From Neodothiora populina (Eukaryota), in assembly GCF_041146345.1 (NCBI RefSeq), contig NW_027191413.1, positions 124,001 to 188,000 on the forward strand: a DNA stretch of 64,000 bases, in the 5' to 3' direction. A program made the translations under genes and the position numbers. The notes beneath the pieces are model-generated. The model was not told where the DNA came from. It saw only the letters and a program-made list of their open reading frames with translations, and did not search any database. Shown here one piece after another: positions 46,295 through 53,286 of this stretch (positions are counted from its first letter, which is position 1; the number at the start of each line of letters is the position of its first letter).

Positions 46295-47356
46295 CTAAGC
46301 TAGCTTACCAAGACTCTCGTGTATATCCTCTCTCTCAACTTGCTTTCCCAGAAGCCAGCCTATGTTGATGACGGCATCGACCATCCCCTTCTTTGAAGCC
46401 TCAATGGATGGGAACATGGCCCAGTGAGCGTGTGGAACGCCTGGGTAGAGGTCGAATTTGGTCTTGACGCCCCTTTCGTCCAGCACTCGCCCATATATGA
46501 GTCCATCGTCCCTCAACGGATCCAATCCGCAGACTTGAATATAAGTCGTCGGGTGCTCGTCATCAATCACGTCCAGGTTGTTGAATGGCGAGAAGTTTTT
46601 AGAAGCAAAGTCAGGACACCACATGCGCTTCACCATGCTCAAGACTTCGTTGTTGATCATTGCGGCGTTGGCATTCTGCTCTCGAGCCTGGTAGAACTCT
46701 TCGTAGCCCTTGGGCGCTTCGTTGAGTAACCATGGAACAGACAACCACAAGCCCGTCAATGGCAATTCTAACCTGTCTGTCTGGGCCATGGCCGCTGCGA
46801 CGGCAGCTACGTTGCCACCAGCAGATTCGCCACCAAGCACAAACCCAGCAGAAGGGTCAGCACCGATGCGAGAAGCGTTCTTTGCGATCCATTGCAGGTT
46901 ATCCCAGACATCGTGTGCCTGGACTGGGAACTTGAATTCGGGAGTCATGCGGTAGCTGATGCTGACCACTATCGCATCGTACAAATGAGCAATCGGTTTT
47001 GCATATGGAGTCGGAGAGTTGTTGTCGCCTGTGATGAACCCGCCACCATAAACAAGCACCACCAGTGGTCTTCCTGCTGATTGTTGCGCAGCTTGAGGCT
47101 TGAAGATCCGGGCTTCGTTCTCGAAACCATCTCGCATTGCGATGTTCATTACCGACACCTCAACCGGCAATTGTGGGAGTGCATCTCGTCGTTTACGATC
47201 CTCCAGCTCGCGATAGAAGCGCGCCGTGCTCGGCTCACTCATGTCGGGTATCTCACCTGTGGGCAGACTCTCAAAGAACTTCTGAAGCCCTTGAACGAAC
47301 TCAGGGTCCGGCTCGTTCAACTTCGACAGTACTTCTTGGGTAGGGAAAGTAGCCAT
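46295..47356 (-). CDS. Alpha/beta-hydrolase fold-3 (HSL-family) esterase/lipase
   Basis: Oxyanion YGGGF, nucleophile GESAGG, DPLRDDG and YPGVPH motifs. Confidence 0.92.
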   Translation of the reverse strand: MATFPTQEVLSKLNEPDPEFVQGLQKFFESLPTGEIPDMSEPSTARFYRELEDRKRRDALPQLPVEVSVMNIAMRDGFENEARIFKPQAAQQSAGRPLVVLVYGGGFITGDNNSPTPYAKPIAHLYDAIVVSISYRMTPEFKFPVQAHDVWDNLQWIAKNASRIGADPSAGFVLGGESAGGNVAAVAAAMAQTDRLELPLTGLWLSVPWLLNEAPKGYEEFYQAREQNANAAMINNEVLSMVKRMWCPDFASKNFSPFNNLDVIDDEHPTTYIQVCGLDPLRDDGLIYGRVLDERGVKTKFDLYPGVPHAHWAMFPSIEASKKGMVDAVINIGWLLGKQVEREDIHESLGKLA

Positions 47357-48017
47357 AACGAGTCTTATCAGTCGCAGGTCCCGTTGATCAATAAGGTAGA
47401 TTGGGGCAAGTAATCCAATGTGTTCAGTGATGGTGTAGTTCCTAGAAGATAGCGCTCTCTACCGTGTCTTATGTATCTCGTGGGGGACTGGGATGCTAAC
47501 CACTAATGTCTTTCTCCAATTCTTCAACGTCTCAGATCCACATCAGCGACAATCTCCTCATTCAACAACACCAAATCTGTACAAAAAGTGTATCAGATAT
47601 GCGCGAAACGTAGTCGTGCAGCAGGGTCTCGTTCCATGTGGTTTATACCCGGGCGTTCCGTCCTCCGGCGCAACGGATCTCGCCACATCCGAACAGCAAA
47701 CGTCACTCGAACGACAACTACATTCCCCAATCATACTGTCTATCAAGCACCCAGTGTATATCTTTCGAGTCGAATCCATTATCTCGTGCATACAGGAGAA
47801 ACATTTAAAAGCCGTAAGCATTGTTGAATGCCAGACATGTTCACCTTGCAGAGGTTGAAGCCCTAATTTATGCGTAAGGACCCACCTGACGACAGTACTC
47901 ACAGCACATGACAATCTAATCATGCCAAATCGTTGCACAGCCTGTTTTCAAGTGCAACATGCATTTCTCCTAGCTTTCGGCTTTTGGCAAACGGTTTGAA
48001 CCACTGACTTCAATAAC

Positions 48018-50957
48018 CTAAAAGCTTCGAGCGTAGATAGCTATTGTATTCGATGTCAGGTTTCCGCACTCTCCCGGCACACCCCCAGCGATCGCTCCTC
48101 CGTTACAAGGCCAGCAATTGTTCTACACACGCATGTTTAGTGTAATTTTACTCACATTCGCTAGCCGCATGCCTCACCTCTCCAGCTGGACCTTGTACAG
48201 TCAGGACTCCTACTACCACGGTCACATACGTGAGGATGTTCCCGCAATAGCAATCTGCACTGTTGGTGCCTTGATTCACCGTTCCGAAGAAGATGTAATT
48301 CTGGCGTTGACATAAACTGGCGCACTGCGAATTGATTATGCCAGGTACTGATGTTTGGTATGCCGCAAGAGCTTTGCCACTGGAAACGATAGGCAATCCT
48401 GTCTGGATGTAACAGCCAAAGTATGCGAACAAATTTGCGGTATTCGTCGGACCTAGATTGTTGCTTGTAAGTTGCGGGTTGGATACTCCCATGGGTCTCA
48501 CATACCGATCGGCCCCTGCAAAGAATTGTAAGCTCAGCGATACCTGCAGACAGAGTAATGAAGTGACTTACGCTTGGACCTGCTATGCCCTTGGTAATCC
48601 GTGTCAGTAGTCACATGTTTGTTGAGTATCAGTGTACCTACTGTTGGCCCCTAATGGTTGGTTTAGCAGTGAGCAAAGACAGGTCAGCTCAGATGCACAT
48701 ACCGAAGGTCCGCTTGGTCCGCTTGGCCCACTCGGCCCAGTGCTTCCAGTAGAACCAGCGGGTCCCGCCACACCGGCAGGTCCTATTGCTCCAGTCGCGC
48801 CAGTAATGCCAGAGGCTCCAGTTGGTCCTTCCTTTGGTCAGCTGGGAGCTTGTGAAGAAGTTGTACTCTTCTATCTTACCAGAAGGACCTGGGGGTATCA
48901 GCGATGATCGAACTTTATCACGAGCCGTAGATTCTCACCTGAAGGTCCACTTGGACCTGTCCAGCCTGTCGGCCCAGGTACACCTTGCGGACCCATTGTA
49001 CCAGTTGCACCTGTCGCACCTGTTGCGCCGGTAGGTCCTAGAAGAGATTTATGAGACTACATTCTGTGATCACTGTGGCACAGCAGGGAATCTACAAACC
49101 AATGGGACCCTACACAAGATTAACAGATAGTCAATCTGAATAGTGATGTCGGATACTCACAGCTGGTCCAGTCATTCCGCTTATACCTGTCGGACCAGTA
49201 GCTCCGACCATACCAGATGCACCCTAACAGCATTAGAAGCTTGCCGCGGGTAGATGTTCCTGAACGTCTTACTTGAGGTCCCTATCTGATCTTGTCAGCA
49301 AGGTCTCGAGCTTTGGTCAGCCTGGCACATATACCGTCGGACCGGTCGAGCCCGTTGCTCCAACGGTACCACTAGGACCCTGACATCTGTCAACCCAGGT
49401 ACACATTTTCGCGATTCTATTGTGCATCGTACTTGAACGCCCTGTATCTCCGTCAATGGTCTTCCAATTTCCCTTGATCACTAATGTTTAGCACTTACTG
49501 TAGGTCCGGACGGCCCTTGTGGCCCCTGTATCCATCTCAGCTGACAACCCATCATCGACATTCTCAGACGTCATACCACTACACCAGTATCTCCTTGCGC
49601 GCCCGTTTGGCCCTGCCAAAGGTCAGAAAAGACCTAAGATCGAGCATCAGATTGCACCCACTGTAGGTCCTGCCACTCCTTGAATGCCTTGTGGACCCTT
49701 GGAGCGCTGTCAGTCCTGTCTAGATTCCTGATCCCATCACATGAGTTTACCGTCGGCCCTATAGCGCCGGTCTGTCCCACTGCTCCAGATGCACCGTCGG
49801 CACCTGTGGCACCGGATGGGCCTATTTCTCGCTCAGCCAACTATGAGACTCGGAAACTTCAAGAGTATACTACCTGTAGGTCCAGTCGCACCGACCGCTC
49901 CACTGATCCCCGAAGCACCCGTCGGCCTGGAAAATAACGTCACTATATGTCTTGTATATCAGAACTTATAAAACTCACCCTGAAGGTCCCTGTACAGAAT
50001 GCATCAATACCGTCAGTCTCTAGTCTTTCACATCTCCACTCACCGATGGTCAGGTTGACCCTATCGGACACAAAGTCAGCAAATGATCGATTGCAGTTCA
50101 TACGTCAACCTACCAACTGGTCCTGCACTCCCACGCAACGTCGCACAGGCATTTGCATAGAGTGACAAGTAAATATAGACACATCCATCAGAAGCAATGC
50201 CTTCAACAAACGTAGCACGAACCGACCCATTACTAAAAGCGCAAAACTGCGCCTCTCCGTTCCAGAAAGCAGGATTGTTCCAATTGAGGAACCCATTTTT
50301 CATCGCGGAGAAAGTCGTCGTGATTGACCCCGGCGTCAGCGAAGGTACAAAGGGCGACCATGTCAGGCCAGGTTCCGTGGAGTAATAGTACAGAGCACCG
50401 TCGATGGTAGCTGTGAGCTGACCGTAGGAGTCGATTGCATACATTGGCGCAGTAGAGCAGTCGACCGTCATCGTGCCATTGGCGCCTATGTAGTGTGTTG
50501 ACTGGCGTTTATCATTCTGATTTGCGCCTACGCCTCCGACACTGCCTACTGGCCCGCCTTGGACTATCAGCACGAAGCTCTCGTCAGTCGATGTCGGTAT
50601 AGACGCAGAACCACTCGTCGTGTCCGCCACCACAAAGCCACTCGCCAACGAGGAGCTCGCTGTGCGCACCGATCCGAGTGTCTGTGACCAACTAAGCGTA
50701 GTGACAACATCAAACGACGTAGGCGCATTAGTAACCGAGATGGCCACCTCCGGGATCGGACGAAACGAAGTATTCGTCAGTACATCCGTATTGATCGAGA
50801 CCACCTCCTCGTGCACGACTGTCTGCAGCTGCGGCAGAGCGGCGCGCATCTCATAGGATTGGTATTGTAGTTGACAGGCATTCTGCCGAGTGGTTTTCTT
50901 GACAATGTCTACACAAAAGGGGCGTTGGGAACCTTCGATGATTGCGTCGCTTCTCAC
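48018..50957 (-). CDS. Microexon-encoded collagen-like protein with C-terminal WSC domain (in-frame TGA; possible pseudogene; 5' start unresolved)
   Basis: About 20 GT-AG introns splice in frame to ~76 consecutive Gly-X-Y triplets, followed by FAYFGCY...CASLC...YIFFGT...CYCGN...NCWPCNG...ECG...IAIYARSF*. The large upstream exon encodes a Ser/Thr-rich then Cys-containing domain. Confidence 0.85.
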
Positions 50958-51507
50958 CTATCTTTTTGTTTACTGTTGTTCGGTCTCTGCCTGAATACTT
51001 TGTTATGATGTGGCCAGAGGAATGCATCTATAGCATGGCTAGACTCTGCGAGCTAACTGATATGGTCAGGCTGTGTAACGTGAAGGCGCTTGATTGTGAT
51101 CTATCATTTTTCTCATATGAACAGCCTCCCCTGCCCTCCCCTGCCGCCCAAAACTGGTTCCAGAGTTGTGCTTGGGGTACGGCTACCGATATCTTGCAGA
51201 TTCCTCTGCTTGCTGGGAACTAAATCCTCAGGAAGAGACACACAGTGTCCCCGCTATCGAAATAACGAGAAGATCTTGTATAGCGCGGCGCTGTCTAGGT
51301 ACCTAAACGCCACATCAACGTCGACTATGTCGCTCACCGTCGTGCAGGGCAGCCGAAAGGCCAATCGCCACCCCTTGCATTCCAGGACAAAAATTTCCCA
51401 AGAGGTACACTGCAAGCGCGAAAATGTATCTCTCAGAGACATCGACCAGAGGCTAGCCAAAGACCTAGCATCTGCCTTCCCTGAGCAAATGCGTGTGGTC
51501 TTTCATC

Positions 51508-53286
51508 TTACTTGCCATTCCAAGAATCCAAGCCCAGCCCACCGACCTCCCACGCCGCAGCCGCATTGAATATACCCGCCTCACCGAACCGTCTGCCCAC
51601 GAGCTGCATCGCGATTGGAAGCTTCCCTTCGCCGTCCTCTGCATCGCCCCATCCGATCGGCATGCTCAGTCCCGGATGGCCAGTGCAGTTGAAAGGGCAC
51701 GTATTGAGCGAAAGCCCGATCGCAGGCGTCATTTTCTCCCTGACGCTCATGTCCAGCTCGGGGTGTTTCATGGCTACTCGGGGCGTGAGGGGCGTGACGA
51801 GCACGTCCACATCCTTCAGCGCTTCGTCGTAGGCGGCGCGCAGCTGCGAGACGTGCGTCATTGCTTTTGCTGTCAGTGCTGGGCCTCCTTGGGGGTGCGA
51901 GGCGAGAAATTCGCCGTTGATGAGCATGTTTGAGACGGCGGGATTGTGTTTTGTGAGAGTTGCCAGTGATGCGTCTGATAAGGGTGGTGGGGAGATGTCG
52001 GGCATGGGGTAGTTCAGTAGGGCTTGCGGTTGGTTCTGTAGGCCATAGGTGCCAATGCCGCATCGAGTCGCGATCGTCCAGATGCTGGGTCCTGCTGAGT
52101 GTAATGGGATGGAGACTTCCGTCACTGCGGCACCAGCAGAACGGAACCGCTCGATGGCATCGTACACGGTCGCTCGGACGACTTCTGTGAGCCCTGGCAT
52201 GGCGAAAGCCTCCTTCAGCACGCCGATTCGCAAGCCTTTGCCTGCTGCCGTTGTCGTCCATTCGCCACTGGCTTGCTTTGCTGCTATCCAGGTGGACAGA
52301 TCTTTCGTGTAATCTGGCACGTTTGAACGCAGTGGTGTTTCGGGGGTCATTCTCGGGTCAAGACCATCATAACCAGCCAAGACACCTAGGAGAGTTGTGA
52401 GATCCGTCAACGAGCTCGCCATCGGGCCTGCGTGGTCTATCATAGGATGTAAAGACAAGATGCCGCTATACGCGACCAAGCCGTGCGTAGGCTTGAGTCC
52501 ATAGATGCCAGTGAAGGCCGCCGGCAGTCTGATCGATCCGCCCTGGTCACCACCAACTGCCATATCGACACCTTCTCCAAGCTCATCGTCAATAGATGAG
52601 AGACCATGACGTTTCCTCCATGCTTTGACTTGGTTGATTGCGACCAAGCACGCACTGCCGCTCGAACTACCGCCTGTAGTGTACCCTTTCAGCCACGGAT
52701 TGTGGACGGTCCCATTCGCACTGGTGAAAGATATCGGAGACATGGAGAAGTGCTCGCAAGTAGCAGTACCGTACACAGTGCCTCCAGATTGCAGTACTCG
52801 AGAGACTACGACAGCATCGATTTTCGAGATTGGGTATTCTGGTTTACCGTTCAGCAGTTCGGGAAATGTGCCGCCGGTGATTGGAAGACCTGCGACTGAG
52901 ACGTTGTCCTTGAATGCCAGCGTCCGACCTTTGAGACGTTCGTGGGTGGGCGATGGATGTGTTACGTCGCATCGATGGCTCCATCCTCCCAGAGCGTTGT
53001 GTTCTGCCTTCCACCATGTTCGGGGTATTGTCCCAGCGTCTGGTGCAAGTCTAGGGTCTATGTACTCTGGTAGGTCTGCTATTTGTTTTCGAGTTGCATC
53101 TAGTCCGTTCAACAGTATGCGATAGTCCTCTGCGTCGGTCTCTGGGATCGTCACGTTGAGTTTCGATCCGATGCCGTGTATCGTCTCAATCGTGACTGCT
53201 TCATGGATTAGATTTCGTCCTATCTCTTCTCACAGCACAATACGATTACCTGTTGATTGCCCAGTGTTCAGTGATACGACAGACAT
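51508..53286 (-). CDS. Amidase-signature family amidase
   Basis: Intron 53199-53249. Catalytic motifs LAFKDN, GGSSSGS, GGDQGGSIRLPA, GLKPTHG. Confidence 0.95.

Follow-up and report, generated by a model that had tools for sequence, protein, structure and literature searches.

A gene of Neodothiora populina for a collagen-like rod flanked by DUF7908 and WSC-like domains, divided by short introns into exons as short as 9 nt

Introduction

MCL1 of Metarhizium is reportedly a fungal collagen-like surface protein. MCL1-type proteins are secreted or cell-surface proteins of ascomycetes with Gly-X-Y repeats, as is the family described here, the likeness being one by description. Hydroxyproline-free collagens are represented in bacteria by BclA of Bacillus and Scl1/Scl2 of Streptococcus, whereas the fibrillar collagen genes of animals are built of 54-bp-type exons. 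In animal collectins, such as mannose-binding lectin and surfactant protein D, a trimeric collagen stalk presents lectin domains in threes.

The gene analyzed here lies in a 64,000-nt stretch of the Neodothiora populina genome (the window; contig NW_027191413.1, positions 124,001 to 188,000), to which all coordinates refer. Like BclA, Scl1 and Scl2, it encodes a GPT/GXT-rich repeat with almost no proline at the Y position and a globular domain at the rod end. The comparison claims no homology beyond the repeat. The bacterial collagens have no introns and end in C1q-like (BclA) or V domains. The exons resemble those of animal fibrillar collagens in that they open on a Gly codon, and the length of many is divisible by 9, but in the fungal gene they are as short as 9 nt, the introns include seven in phase 1 or 2, and intron length is approximately 52 nt. 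The comparison with collectins concerns a proposed working principle by analogy, not membership: the fungal family lacks a C-type lectin domain (none was detected when the exons and full-length relatives were scanned with Pfam) and a coiled-coil neck, and has putative lectin-type modules at both ends.

Fungal collagen-domain proteins, 508 in number, were found to be concentrated in Ascomycota (bioRxiv 10.1101/2021.10.08.463732). For MCL1, that preprint cites Wang and Leger 2006. In the available portion of that preprint, whose supplements might list domain partners, the terms WSC, introns and exons have no occurrence, and neither flanking DUF7908 and WSC-like domains nor a microexon structure is described. 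Literature searches returned nothing on DUF7908 or on a fungal collagen-like protein with a WSC domain, and those for a fungal microexon collagen gave only matches unrelated by title and abstract. No function was found described for the relatives with DUF7908, collagen and WSC domains.

Results

Exon-intron structure of the gene

On the minus strand, 21 exons separated by 20 introns could be joined in frame from 50957 to 48018 (Table 1). The preliminary description, made from the letters of the window, had noted about 20 short canonical introns; indeed, all 20 introns began with GT and ended with AG, their lengths were 49-62 nt, and 11 of them contained a strict CTRAY branch motif. The spliced frame comprised 76 triplet slots followed by a cysteine-rich C-terminal domain and a stop codon. 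The collagen part was composed of 18 exons of 9-125 nt, and one additional intron divided the WSC-like domain. The 19 introns of the collagen part were all located directly before or within a Gly codon, which had been claimed for most of them; seven introns were in phase 1 or 2, while the phase-0 exons of 9, 9, 9, 18, 27, 36, 36, 45 and 63 nt were multiples of 9. The four 9-nt exons and the other small exons of 10, 11, 17 and 18 nt were found where they had been reported. With the upper limit for a microexon set at 27 nt, 10 of the 18 collagen exons qualified, fewer than the roughly 18 microexons that had been proposed. Skipping of the 17-nt exon, the 11-nt exon or either 10-nt exon destroyed the frame and eliminated the C-terminal domain, and 11 of the 18 collagen exons could be skipped with the frame kept. 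This exon-intron anatomy is more than chance, as judged by the shuffles for the 9-nt exons (Table 1).

Table 1. Features of the collagen-like gene and its candidate leader
Feature	Position	Strand	Details
Exon 1	50114..50957	-	frame open from 50957; first in-frame ATG 50849; QNAC motif (N at 50882)
Exon 1 content	50114..50957	-	Ser/Thr-rich linker, DUF7908, first triplets GSA GPV, G split at exon end
Exon 2, 17 nt	50044..50060	-	phase 1 to 0; collagen register G-S-T-stop-P-S; flanks GTAGGT...AG and GTGAGT
In-frame TGA	50050..50052	-	in exon 2, triplet slot 4 of 76; Gly at remaining 75 slots
Exon 3, 11 nt	49979..49989	-	GPS G-, phase 0 to 2; frame-essential
Exon 4, 53 nt	49874..49926	-	
Exon 5, 71 nt	49751..49821	-	
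Exon 6, 36 nt, phase 0-0	49662..49697	-	
Exon 7, 36 nt, phase 0-0	49577..49612	-	
Exon 8, 27 nt, phase 0-0	49499..49525	-	
Exon 9, 9-nt microexon GVQ	49433..49441	-	flanking introns 57 and 53 nt; 153/20,000 shuffles
Exon 10, 45 nt	49335..49379	-	
Exon 11, 9-nt microexon GPQ	49273..49281	-	flanking introns 53 and 49 nt; 55/20,000 shuffles
Exon 12, 63 nt	49161..49223	-	
Exon 13, 10-nt microexon GPI G-, phase 0 to 1	49100..49109	-	frame-essential; retained with introns up to 170 nt permitted
Exon 14, 99 nt	48939..49037	-	Pfam Collagen 23.7 bits, 4.1e-5, single exon
Exon 15, 9-nt microexon, phase 1 (-G PS G-)	48880..48888	-	flanking introns 50 and 52 nt; 121/20,000 shuffles
Exon 16, 125 nt, longest collagen exon	48703..48827	-	Pfam PF01391 Collagen 28.6 bits vs cut-off 27.2, single exon
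Exon 17, 9-nt microexon GPT	48642..48650	-	flanking introns 52 and 52 nt; 22/20,000 shuffles
Exon 18, 18 nt, GIA GPS	48572..48589	-	
Exon 19, 10-nt microexon GPI G-, phase 0 to 1	48506..48515	-	skipping loses frame and C-terminal domain
Exon 20	48178..48452	-	last triplet and first five WSC-like cysteines; PF01822 match
Exon 21	48018..48122	-	last three cysteines (NNCWPCNGG...ECGN...IYARSF) and TAG stop 48020-48018
Weak signal-peptide exon candidate MQGVAIGLSAALHD	51338..51380	-	most hydrophobic of 150 combinations; needs 405-429-nt intron

Introner-like elements are multiplying introns of Dothideomycetes. The introns of this gene showed no mutual similarity, and their origin as a repeated element or by recent duplication of a unit was discarded; when the 20 intron cores were compared in pairs, the highest score was 1.0, whereas 200 shuffles gave a mean best score of 2.4. 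A further intron inside the WSC exon (donor ...CTCAC-GTATGT) was also rejected, being out of frame and placed where the relatives have no break. On the plus strand, the ORFs of this region (111, 99 and 93 aa) gave no Pfam match. A search of sequencing runs returned no RNA run containing the gene; the one run listed (X1), which shared 0.08 of the words, yielded contigs at 48524-48723 and 50061-50290; since these were colinear with the genome, introns included, and contained no joints, the run was probably one of DNA. The edge of one contig lay one base short of exon 2.

The collagen-like rod and its flanking domains

Glycine occupied the first position in all triplet slots except the fourth, which is a stop codon; the expected run of about 76 consecutive Gly-X-Y triplets was thus exact in its number of slots but interrupted near its beginning. 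The repeat had been called Thr-rich and hydroxyproline-independent, and the composition agreed with this, with Thr at 30, Ser at 19 and Pro at only 1 of the 76 Y positions, and Pro at 35 of the 76 X positions. In the Pfam check that had been proposed, run exon by exon, exon 16 and, at a lower score, exon 14 each matched the Collagen profile, the former above the cut-off.

The same check applied to the upstream domain identified exon 1 as DUF7908 (PF25485; E-value 1.9e-27, 96.6 bits against a gathering threshold of 27, profile positions 12-131 of 134). The domain kept 23 of the 23 invariant columns of a 17-sequence alignment, and a homologue search with exon 1 gave 338 relatives at an E-value of 1e-3 or below. 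The AlphaFold model of DUF7908 had a core pLDDT of 81-90, and its fold matches included beta-trefoils, a fold common in lectins. DUF7908 thus models, tentatively, as a lectin-type (beta-trefoil-like) fold, and the rod may therefore carry a head at each end. In P0044, P0046 and P0050, DUF7908 was instead placed on Thr-rich linkers, and collagen was absent.

The assignment of the C-terminal domain to WSC was borderline. Exon 20 alone matched PF01822 with an E-value of 3.2e-6 and a score of 27.7 bits, just below the gathering threshold of 27.8, over profile positions 1-56 of 82. The scores of relatives were 22.4-27.0 bits, P0059 had no match up to an E-value of 0.01, and the precomputed Pfam annotation assigns WSC to P0155-P0157. 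The hhalign comparison with the WSC domain of P0073 gave a probability of 28%, with the GC, C..C, FFG and C.C motifs aligned. The WSC pattern consists of eight conserved cysteines, and the spliced domain contained eight (GC, QC, LC, DC, YC, NC, PC and EC). The five cysteines of exon 20 aligned with those of relatives. The model of the P0155 C-terminal domain, made from a 5-sequence alignment, had a mean pLDDT of 38.5, and a sequence profile search of the PDB with the C-terminal domain found nothing relevant, with a chance match to phycoerythrin (E-value 0.62).

Relatives and variation of intron content

Hypothetical proteins at NCBI with DUF7908, collagen and WSC domains were found in Friedmanniomyces endolithicus, Elasticomyces elasticus and Pycnora praestabilis (P0010, P0153-P0157 and P0059). 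Four of these (P0010, P0153, P0154 and P0059) were clean full-length relatives with the same domain order in a single protein, which bears out the placement of an upstream domain, a collagen-like repeat and a WSC-type domain in one gene. Three further relatives had precomputed Pfam collagen, WSC and DUF7908 assignments. A metagenome scan with the family alignment detected 34 related loci; the scan with a single protein returned 142 pattern matches and no relatives.

The Friedmanniomyces, Elasticomyces and Pycnora proteins shared with the gene of N. populina the domain order, the Q.AC motif, the junctions into and out of the rod, and the C-terminal ending ...CGN...(I/V)(Y/F)AR(S/N/T)(F/E). Over the N-terminal part they were 36-45% identical to this gene, and exon 20 was 43% identical to the C-terminal domain of P0155. 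The join of exons 20 and 21 (...GPAGE-NNCWPC) corresponded to ...GDAGENNCYPC of P0010, and the ending resembled AVFARTE and AVYARNF. Unlike this gene, those relatives possess a signal peptide and have no internal stop.

The collagen part of the relatives ranged from intronless (L009 and L022, with 124 and 73 uninterrupted triplets, respectively) to divided into exons of 7-11 nt, and the Gly periodicity was retained across relatives that differ in X and Y residues. Since the rods of L009 and L022 are intronless, the Gly-phased exon pattern arose within fungi. L009 and L016 share 72% DNA identity and have 2 and 9 introns, respectively. Exons of 7, 8 and 11 nt in relatives could not be skipped without loss of the frame; an 11-nt exon of L009 occupied the gene position matching exon 3, and GPT-coding 9-nt exons like exon 17 also occurred in relatives (L002). 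A gene of the Friedmanniomyces type (L011) has phase-0 exons of 27-423 nt, in contrast to the 9-11-nt exons found here. A harsher splice model of the relatives, in which 77 of 112 introns lay at Gly codons, was set aside as it over-spliced the flanking domains.

It had been anticipated that gene predictors would miss or mis-model such a gene. Read-through or frame-shifted stretches were present in the collagen part of five of the nine NCBI-named relatives (P0001, P0002 and P0155-P0157), and the microexon structure accounts for public gene models of the family being often truncated or garbled. The homologue search found no public model of the locus of at least 430 aa, and the read-through ORF of exon 1 (50849-50079) had no exact match in the collection searched.

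Premature stop codon and missing leader

The first in-frame ATG lay downstream of the conserved QNAC motif, and no signal peptide was encoded upstream of this ATG, whereas all of the 15 relatives examined encode one in exon 1. The protein had been described as secreted, which, like an intact reading frame, is not supported for the present copy. An enumeration of 150 combinations of ATG exon and acceptor for an upstream leader gave none that was convincing; the most hydrophobic one (51380-51338) was short and had no positive charge before its hydrophobic stretch. Between exons 1 and 4, 254 stop-free canonical paths existed, and all required exons of 6-7 nt or donors scoring below 0, except the one that used the weaker donor GTTGGT at 50117 with the acceptor before 49989. 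This path, with an intron of 128 nt, was the sole simple bypass of the TGA. Another reading of exon 2 as 'VNLTI', similar to the LSTIT motif of relatives, was rejected because its frame was one base off at exon 3. The present copy looks compromised, and because of the in-frame TGA and the missing signal peptide it may represent a pseudogene or rely on alternative splicing.

The stop codon, the absent leader and the beta-trefoil-like model of the N-terminal domain had been overlooked in the preliminary description. Its observation largely holds and is partly confirmed, and its interpretation as a whole is partly supported.

Alternative explanations

The 9-nt pieces might lie inside four single introns of 111-119 nt, leaving a rod of 72 slots. 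The frame survives the skipping of any of them, and a model permitting introns up to 170 nt omitted them without harm to the Gly-X-Y register. Each 9-mer, however, is in frame, starts with Gly, is flanked by AG and GT, and creates two introns of 49-57 nt like the others; when the four merged stretches of intron, 9-mer and intron were shuffled, an exon of this kind appeared just 22-153 times per 20,000 shuffles. As relatives also have frame-essential exons of 7, 8 and 11 nt and 9-nt exons coding for GPT, we consider this alternative quite improbable. It is somewhat easier to imagine, though still improbable, that the Gly-X-Y stretch forms no triple helix and serves a monomeric wall protein as a flexible spacer, rich in Ser, Thr and Pro and probably O-glycosylated. 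With Pro at a single Y position, stabilization by hydroxyproline is impossible, Thr and Ser make up 49 of the 76 Y positions, no dedicated trimerization domain was identified, and DUF7908 occurs on Thr-rich linkers elsewhere. Nevertheless, a spacer needs no strict Gly periodicity such as that seen here and in L009 and L022, the periodicity is kept though the X and Y residues differ among relatives, and bacterial collagens rich in GPT, BclA among them, fold into triple helices that lack hydroxyproline. The division of the locus into two separate genes, one with exon 1 (DUF7908) and the other with the collagen-WSC exons, is very hard to maintain. The early TGA in the collagen part and exon 1 read into its own stop (50078-50076) would permit a DUF7908-only product, but the three parts are joined in single proteins in the four full-length relatives and in related loci, and in this gene neither an ATG nor a promoter-sized gap separates them, intron 1 being 53 nt.

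The present copy could also be intact, which is unlikely but deserves more weight than the readings above. The donor at 50117 would then skip the exon with the TGA (...GSAGP-GPSGPT..., the repeat being briefly interrupted once), and the leader would be supplied by a 5' exon that is unusual or escaped detection, or else the TGA would be an artefact of the assembly or the strain. This would agree with the existence of the stop-free path, with the score of the donor (5.1; accepted donors of the gene, 4.8-10.4), with the flawless remainder of the gene and with the weakly hydrophobic candidate exon at 51380-51338. On the other hand, the 128-nt intron stands against 49-62 nt in all others, a stronger donor (score 7.6) located 4 nt from 50117 would be ignored, and exon 2, apart from its stop, keeps the Gly-X-Y register perfectly and hence looks like a true exon. 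The candidate leader, short and uncharged ahead of its hydrophobic stretch, would require an intron of 405-429 nt, while the 15 relatives have theirs in exon 1.

Discussion

The gene is likely a member of an uncharacterized ascomycete family, in which a Gly-X-Y rod stands between DUF7908 and a WSC-like domain, and here the rod is shattered by introns and the copy looks compromised. The family was seen in Dothideomycetes and a lichen-forming fungus. What the sequences show is the layout of exons and introns, the order of the domains, the family itself and the microexon habit in relatives. The family plan comprises a signal peptide, a Ser/Thr-rich linker, DUF7908, a Thr/Ser/Pro-rich Gly-X-Y rod and an eight-cysteine WSC-like domain. 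The following mechanism is proposed from these observations. Three chains would wind into a hydroxyproline-independent triple helix, and at the collagen rise of 0.286 nm per residue the 228 residues would give a rod of approximately 65 nm, one end carrying three beta-trefoil-like heads and the opposite end three WSC-like modules. In this form it could connect glucan or chitin of the fungal wall with glycans outside the fungus, rather in the manner of an animal collectin. The copy in N. populina would be recently inactivated, or would need the alternative donor at 50117 and an undetected 5' exon.

In its boldest form, which we put forward tentatively and regard as doubtful in its entirety, the family would correspond in fungi to the collectins, as a collagen trimer free of hydroxyproline whose beta-trefoil and WSC lectin ends bridge the wall to foreign glycans, and its genes would record fast intron gain or loss targeted to Gly codons, with the rod intronless in some species and divided into 7-11-nt exons in others. 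If this is true, the family would lend itself to testing how exons shorter than the footprint of a splice site are recognized by an intron-defining fungal spliceosome.

Collagen-like proteins are common in ascomycetes, and a role is known for almost none of them. In the present family, a collagen-like rod is paired with two modules of the carbohydrate-binding type. Given this pairing and the fungi in which the family occurs, which are rock-inhabiting black fungi, a lichen-forming fungus and the aspen canker fungus N. populina, a putative role in adhesion or in bridging the wall to surfaces is plausible. The gene structure is the rarer part, as frame-essential exons of 7-11 nt recur in several genomes while close relatives keep the collagen part in one exon, and the family offers concrete loci for the study of intron turnover in repeats and of the recognition of very short exons.

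Exon-intron structure of the collagen-like gene

Splice models of the minus-strand collagen-like gene were computed by dynamic programming, in which Gly at each third codon was rewarded, stop codons were forbidden and introns were restricted to 40-100 nt; three exon boundaries were then set by hand. The gene comprised 21 exons and 20 introns, as summarized in the table. The preliminary description had proposed about 20 short canonical introns, and all 20 modeled introns indeed have GT-AG boundaries at lengths of 49-62 nt, with a strict CTRAY branch motif in 11 of them. The small exons it had listed were all recovered, and its statement that most introns fall before or within a Gly codon proved true of all 19 repeat-region introns, which either precede a Gly codon directly (phase 0) or interrupt one (phase 1 or 2). 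Comparison of the 20 introns with one another found no similarity, and neither a multiplying intron element nor a recent duplication of exon-intron units is therefore indicated. No second Gly-X-Y gene was found elsewhere within the 64-kb window, and plus-strand ORFs across the gene region gave no Pfam match.

Features of the collagen-like gene, its neighborhood and its clean full-length relatives
Feature	Position	Strand	Remarks
Collagen-like gene	50957-48018	minus	DUF7908, 76 Gly-X-Y slots, WSC-like domain
Introns 1-20 (nt)		minus	53, 54, 52, 52, 53, 49, 51, 57, 53, 53, 49, 51, 62, 50, 52, 52, 52, 56, 53, 55
Exons 2-19 (nt)		minus	17, 11, 53, 71, 36, 36, 27, 9, 45, 9, 63, 10, 99, 9, 125, 9, 18, 10
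Upstream in-frame stop	50960-50958	minus	
Intron-like stretch, 49 nt	50909-50957	minus	GTGAGA, pyrimidine-rich tract, TAG
N of QNAC motif	50882	minus	exon 1
First in-frame ATG	50849	minus	downstream of QNAC
Weaker donor GTTGGT	50117	minus	
In-frame TGA	50052-50050	minus	slot 4, exon 2
Intron dividing WSC-like domain	48177-48123	minus	
Candidate leader exon	51380-51338	minus	14 residues
Amidase gene (PF01425)	51511-53229	minus	99% identical to NCBI protein named from Neodothiora populina; assigns the window to that species or a closely allied strain
Alpha/beta hydrolase fold-3/esterase-type ORF	46298-47458	minus	387 aa, just downstream of collagen-like gene
P0010, P0153, P0154			named from Friedmanniomyces endolithicus
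P0059			named from Pycnora praestabilis MAG

Removal of the 17-nt exon, the 11-nt exon or either 10-nt exon broke the frame and lost the C-terminal domain, and the 10-nt exon 13 was retained even with the upper intron limit raised to 170 nt. Because skipping preserves the frame for each of the four 9-nt exons, these were assessed by shuffling. Gly-first, stop-free 9-mers lying between AG and GT, with both resulting introns at least 45 nt, arose by chance in 153, 55, 121 and 22 cases when each of the four merged stretches around these exons was shuffled 20,000 times. The exon structure thus exceeds chance, as indicated by the frame-needed exons, the shuffle result and a product matching a protein family.

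Domain composition and protein family

Exon 1 corresponded to Pfam DUF7908 (96.6 bits), which identifies the upstream domain that was to be checked by HMMER, while the Collagen model was passed by exon 16 alone (28.6 bits; cut-off, 27.2). Exon 20 matched the WSC model at E 3.2e-6 with 27.7 bits, just below the gathering score of 27.8, and the spliced C-terminal domain has eight cysteines. Since an intron divides the domain, the match spans only profile positions 1-56 of 82. Five full-length relatives likewise scored slightly below the cut-off (22.4-27.0 bits), and no WSC match up to E 0.01 was obtained for P0059. Profile comparison with the bona fide WSC of the relative P0073 gave a probability of only 28%, with GC, C..C, FFG and C.C motifs aligned; the domain is therefore named WSC-like. 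P0073 itself carries a full-scoring WSC domain followed by DUF7908 twice, and no collagen. The AlphaFold model from a 17-sequence alignment was confident in the DUF7908 core (pLDDT 81-90 at residues ~120-235) and poor elsewhere. Foldseek with this model returned no match at E<=0.001; beta-trefoils predominated among matches at E 0.05-0.4 (Symfoil, FGF, and fungal and ricin-type lectins).

An exon-1 HMMER search of the protein library detected 338 proteins at E<=1e-3, 24 of them at E<=1e-30. Four relatives were clean throughout, with a signal peptide, DUF7908, a long Gly-X-Y stretch and a matching C-terminal domain in this order. Precomputed Pfam annotation placed Collagen, WSC and DUF7908 on three Elasticomyces elasticus proteins, and the inferred exon 20/21 join (GPAGE to NNCWPC) corresponds to GDAGENNCYPC in P0010. 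The three parts therefore belong to one protein, as had been proposed. This architecture is already in public databases, labelled 'hypothetical protein'. The suspicion that gene predictors mis-model such genes was borne out by five of nine NCBI-named models examined (P0001, P0002, P0155-P0157), in which read-through or frame-shifted sequence interrupts the repeat. Many other family matches end soon after the first triplets; gene calling in the source contig collections may ignore introns. Collagen-free contexts of DUF7908 were also seen: in P0044 the domain is followed by a Thr-rich linker and then by a GLEYA/PA14 adhesin domain (Pfam), and P0046 and P0050 appeared similar by eye.

A total of 508 fungal collagen-domain proteins, with a concentration in Ascomycota, has been reported (bioRxiv 10.1101/2021.10.08.463732); WSC, intron and exon do not occur in the passages of that source consulted. 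The open-access literature searched yielded nothing relevant on DUF7908, on fungal collagen-like proteins with a WSC domain or on fungal collagen microexons.

Intron variation among related loci

A metagenome scan with a sequence alignment identified 34 loci, several being identical or near-identical copies. Gly-X-Y runs lay downstream of DUF7908 in 28 loci, and five of the remaining six have <=357 nt of downstream sequence; a C[WY]C[GSA] motif followed the runs in 20/34. A group of more remote DUF7908 loci, L029-L033 (36% identity), also has downstream Gly-X-Y runs, of up to 94 triplets in L031. The motif was not found downstream in these five, and their C-terminal end is therefore probably different.

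Uninterrupted triplets within one ORF numbered 124 in L009 (one exon, from 1927) and 73 in L022, and the Friedmanniomyces-type L011 has phase 0 exons of 27-423 nt. Canonical donors and acceptors, together with branch motifs, accompany exons of 7, 8, 9, 10 and 11 nt in L002, L006/L010 and L016; L016 (381-1467) has 9 introns and includes 7- and 9-nt exons. Despite 72% DNA identity over 691 nt, L009 has 2 introns ahead of the WSC anchor and L016 has 9. In L006 and L010 (84% identical), conservation covers the small exons (8, 8, 10, 8 and 11 nt) together with their splice sites, whereas the first flanking introns have diverged with indels; the difference in identity between exon (81%) and intron (76%) columns is modest.

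State of the window copy

The proposed anatomy holds except for an in-frame stop codon and a 5' end that is lacking, neither of which it had noted. Splicing yields a repeat of exactly 76 triplet slots, as estimated, but Gly is first in only 75, slot 4 being a TGA. Enumeration from exon 1 to exon 4 gave 254 stop-free canonical paths, of which only one was simple: a weaker donor bypasses exon 2 by a 128-nt intron, joining GSAGP to GPSGPT. Only one sequencing run was found; it probably represents DNA, and its coverage stops one base short of exon 2.

Neither Met nor a hydrophobic leader was found in frame upstream of the conserved QNAC motif, back to the stop. In all 15 related loci examined (34 loci in all), the same ORF contains, just ahead of this motif, an ATG and a leader that by eye resembles a signal peptide. 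The best candidate for a separate leader exon requires a 405-429-nt intron and was unconvincing. A well-formed intron-like stretch adjoins QNAC on the upstream side; its removal would attach an ORF beginning MHSSGH, without a hydrophobic leader.

The stop and the missing leader speak for a recently disabled gene. On the other side, the 40 splice dinucleotides are intact, and every invariant DUF7908 residue and all eight cysteines are retained, which speaks for a working copy or for an artefact of assembly or strain. We regard a compromised copy and its opposite as about equally probable.

Proposed function

The gene structure is real and unusual, and the protein family to which it belongs is likewise real but unstudied. 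The X position of the 76 slots is occupied by Pro in 35 and Ala in 18, and the Y position by Thr in 30, Ser in 19 and Pro in 1, a composition resembling that of hydroxyproline-free bacterial collagens. The collagen triple helix rises 0.286 nm per residue, at which three chains would form a putative rod of ~65 nm. Each end of such a rod would carry three domains, beta-trefoil-like at one and WSC-like at the other, and the whole assembly may act, by analogy, as a collectin-like bridging lectin.
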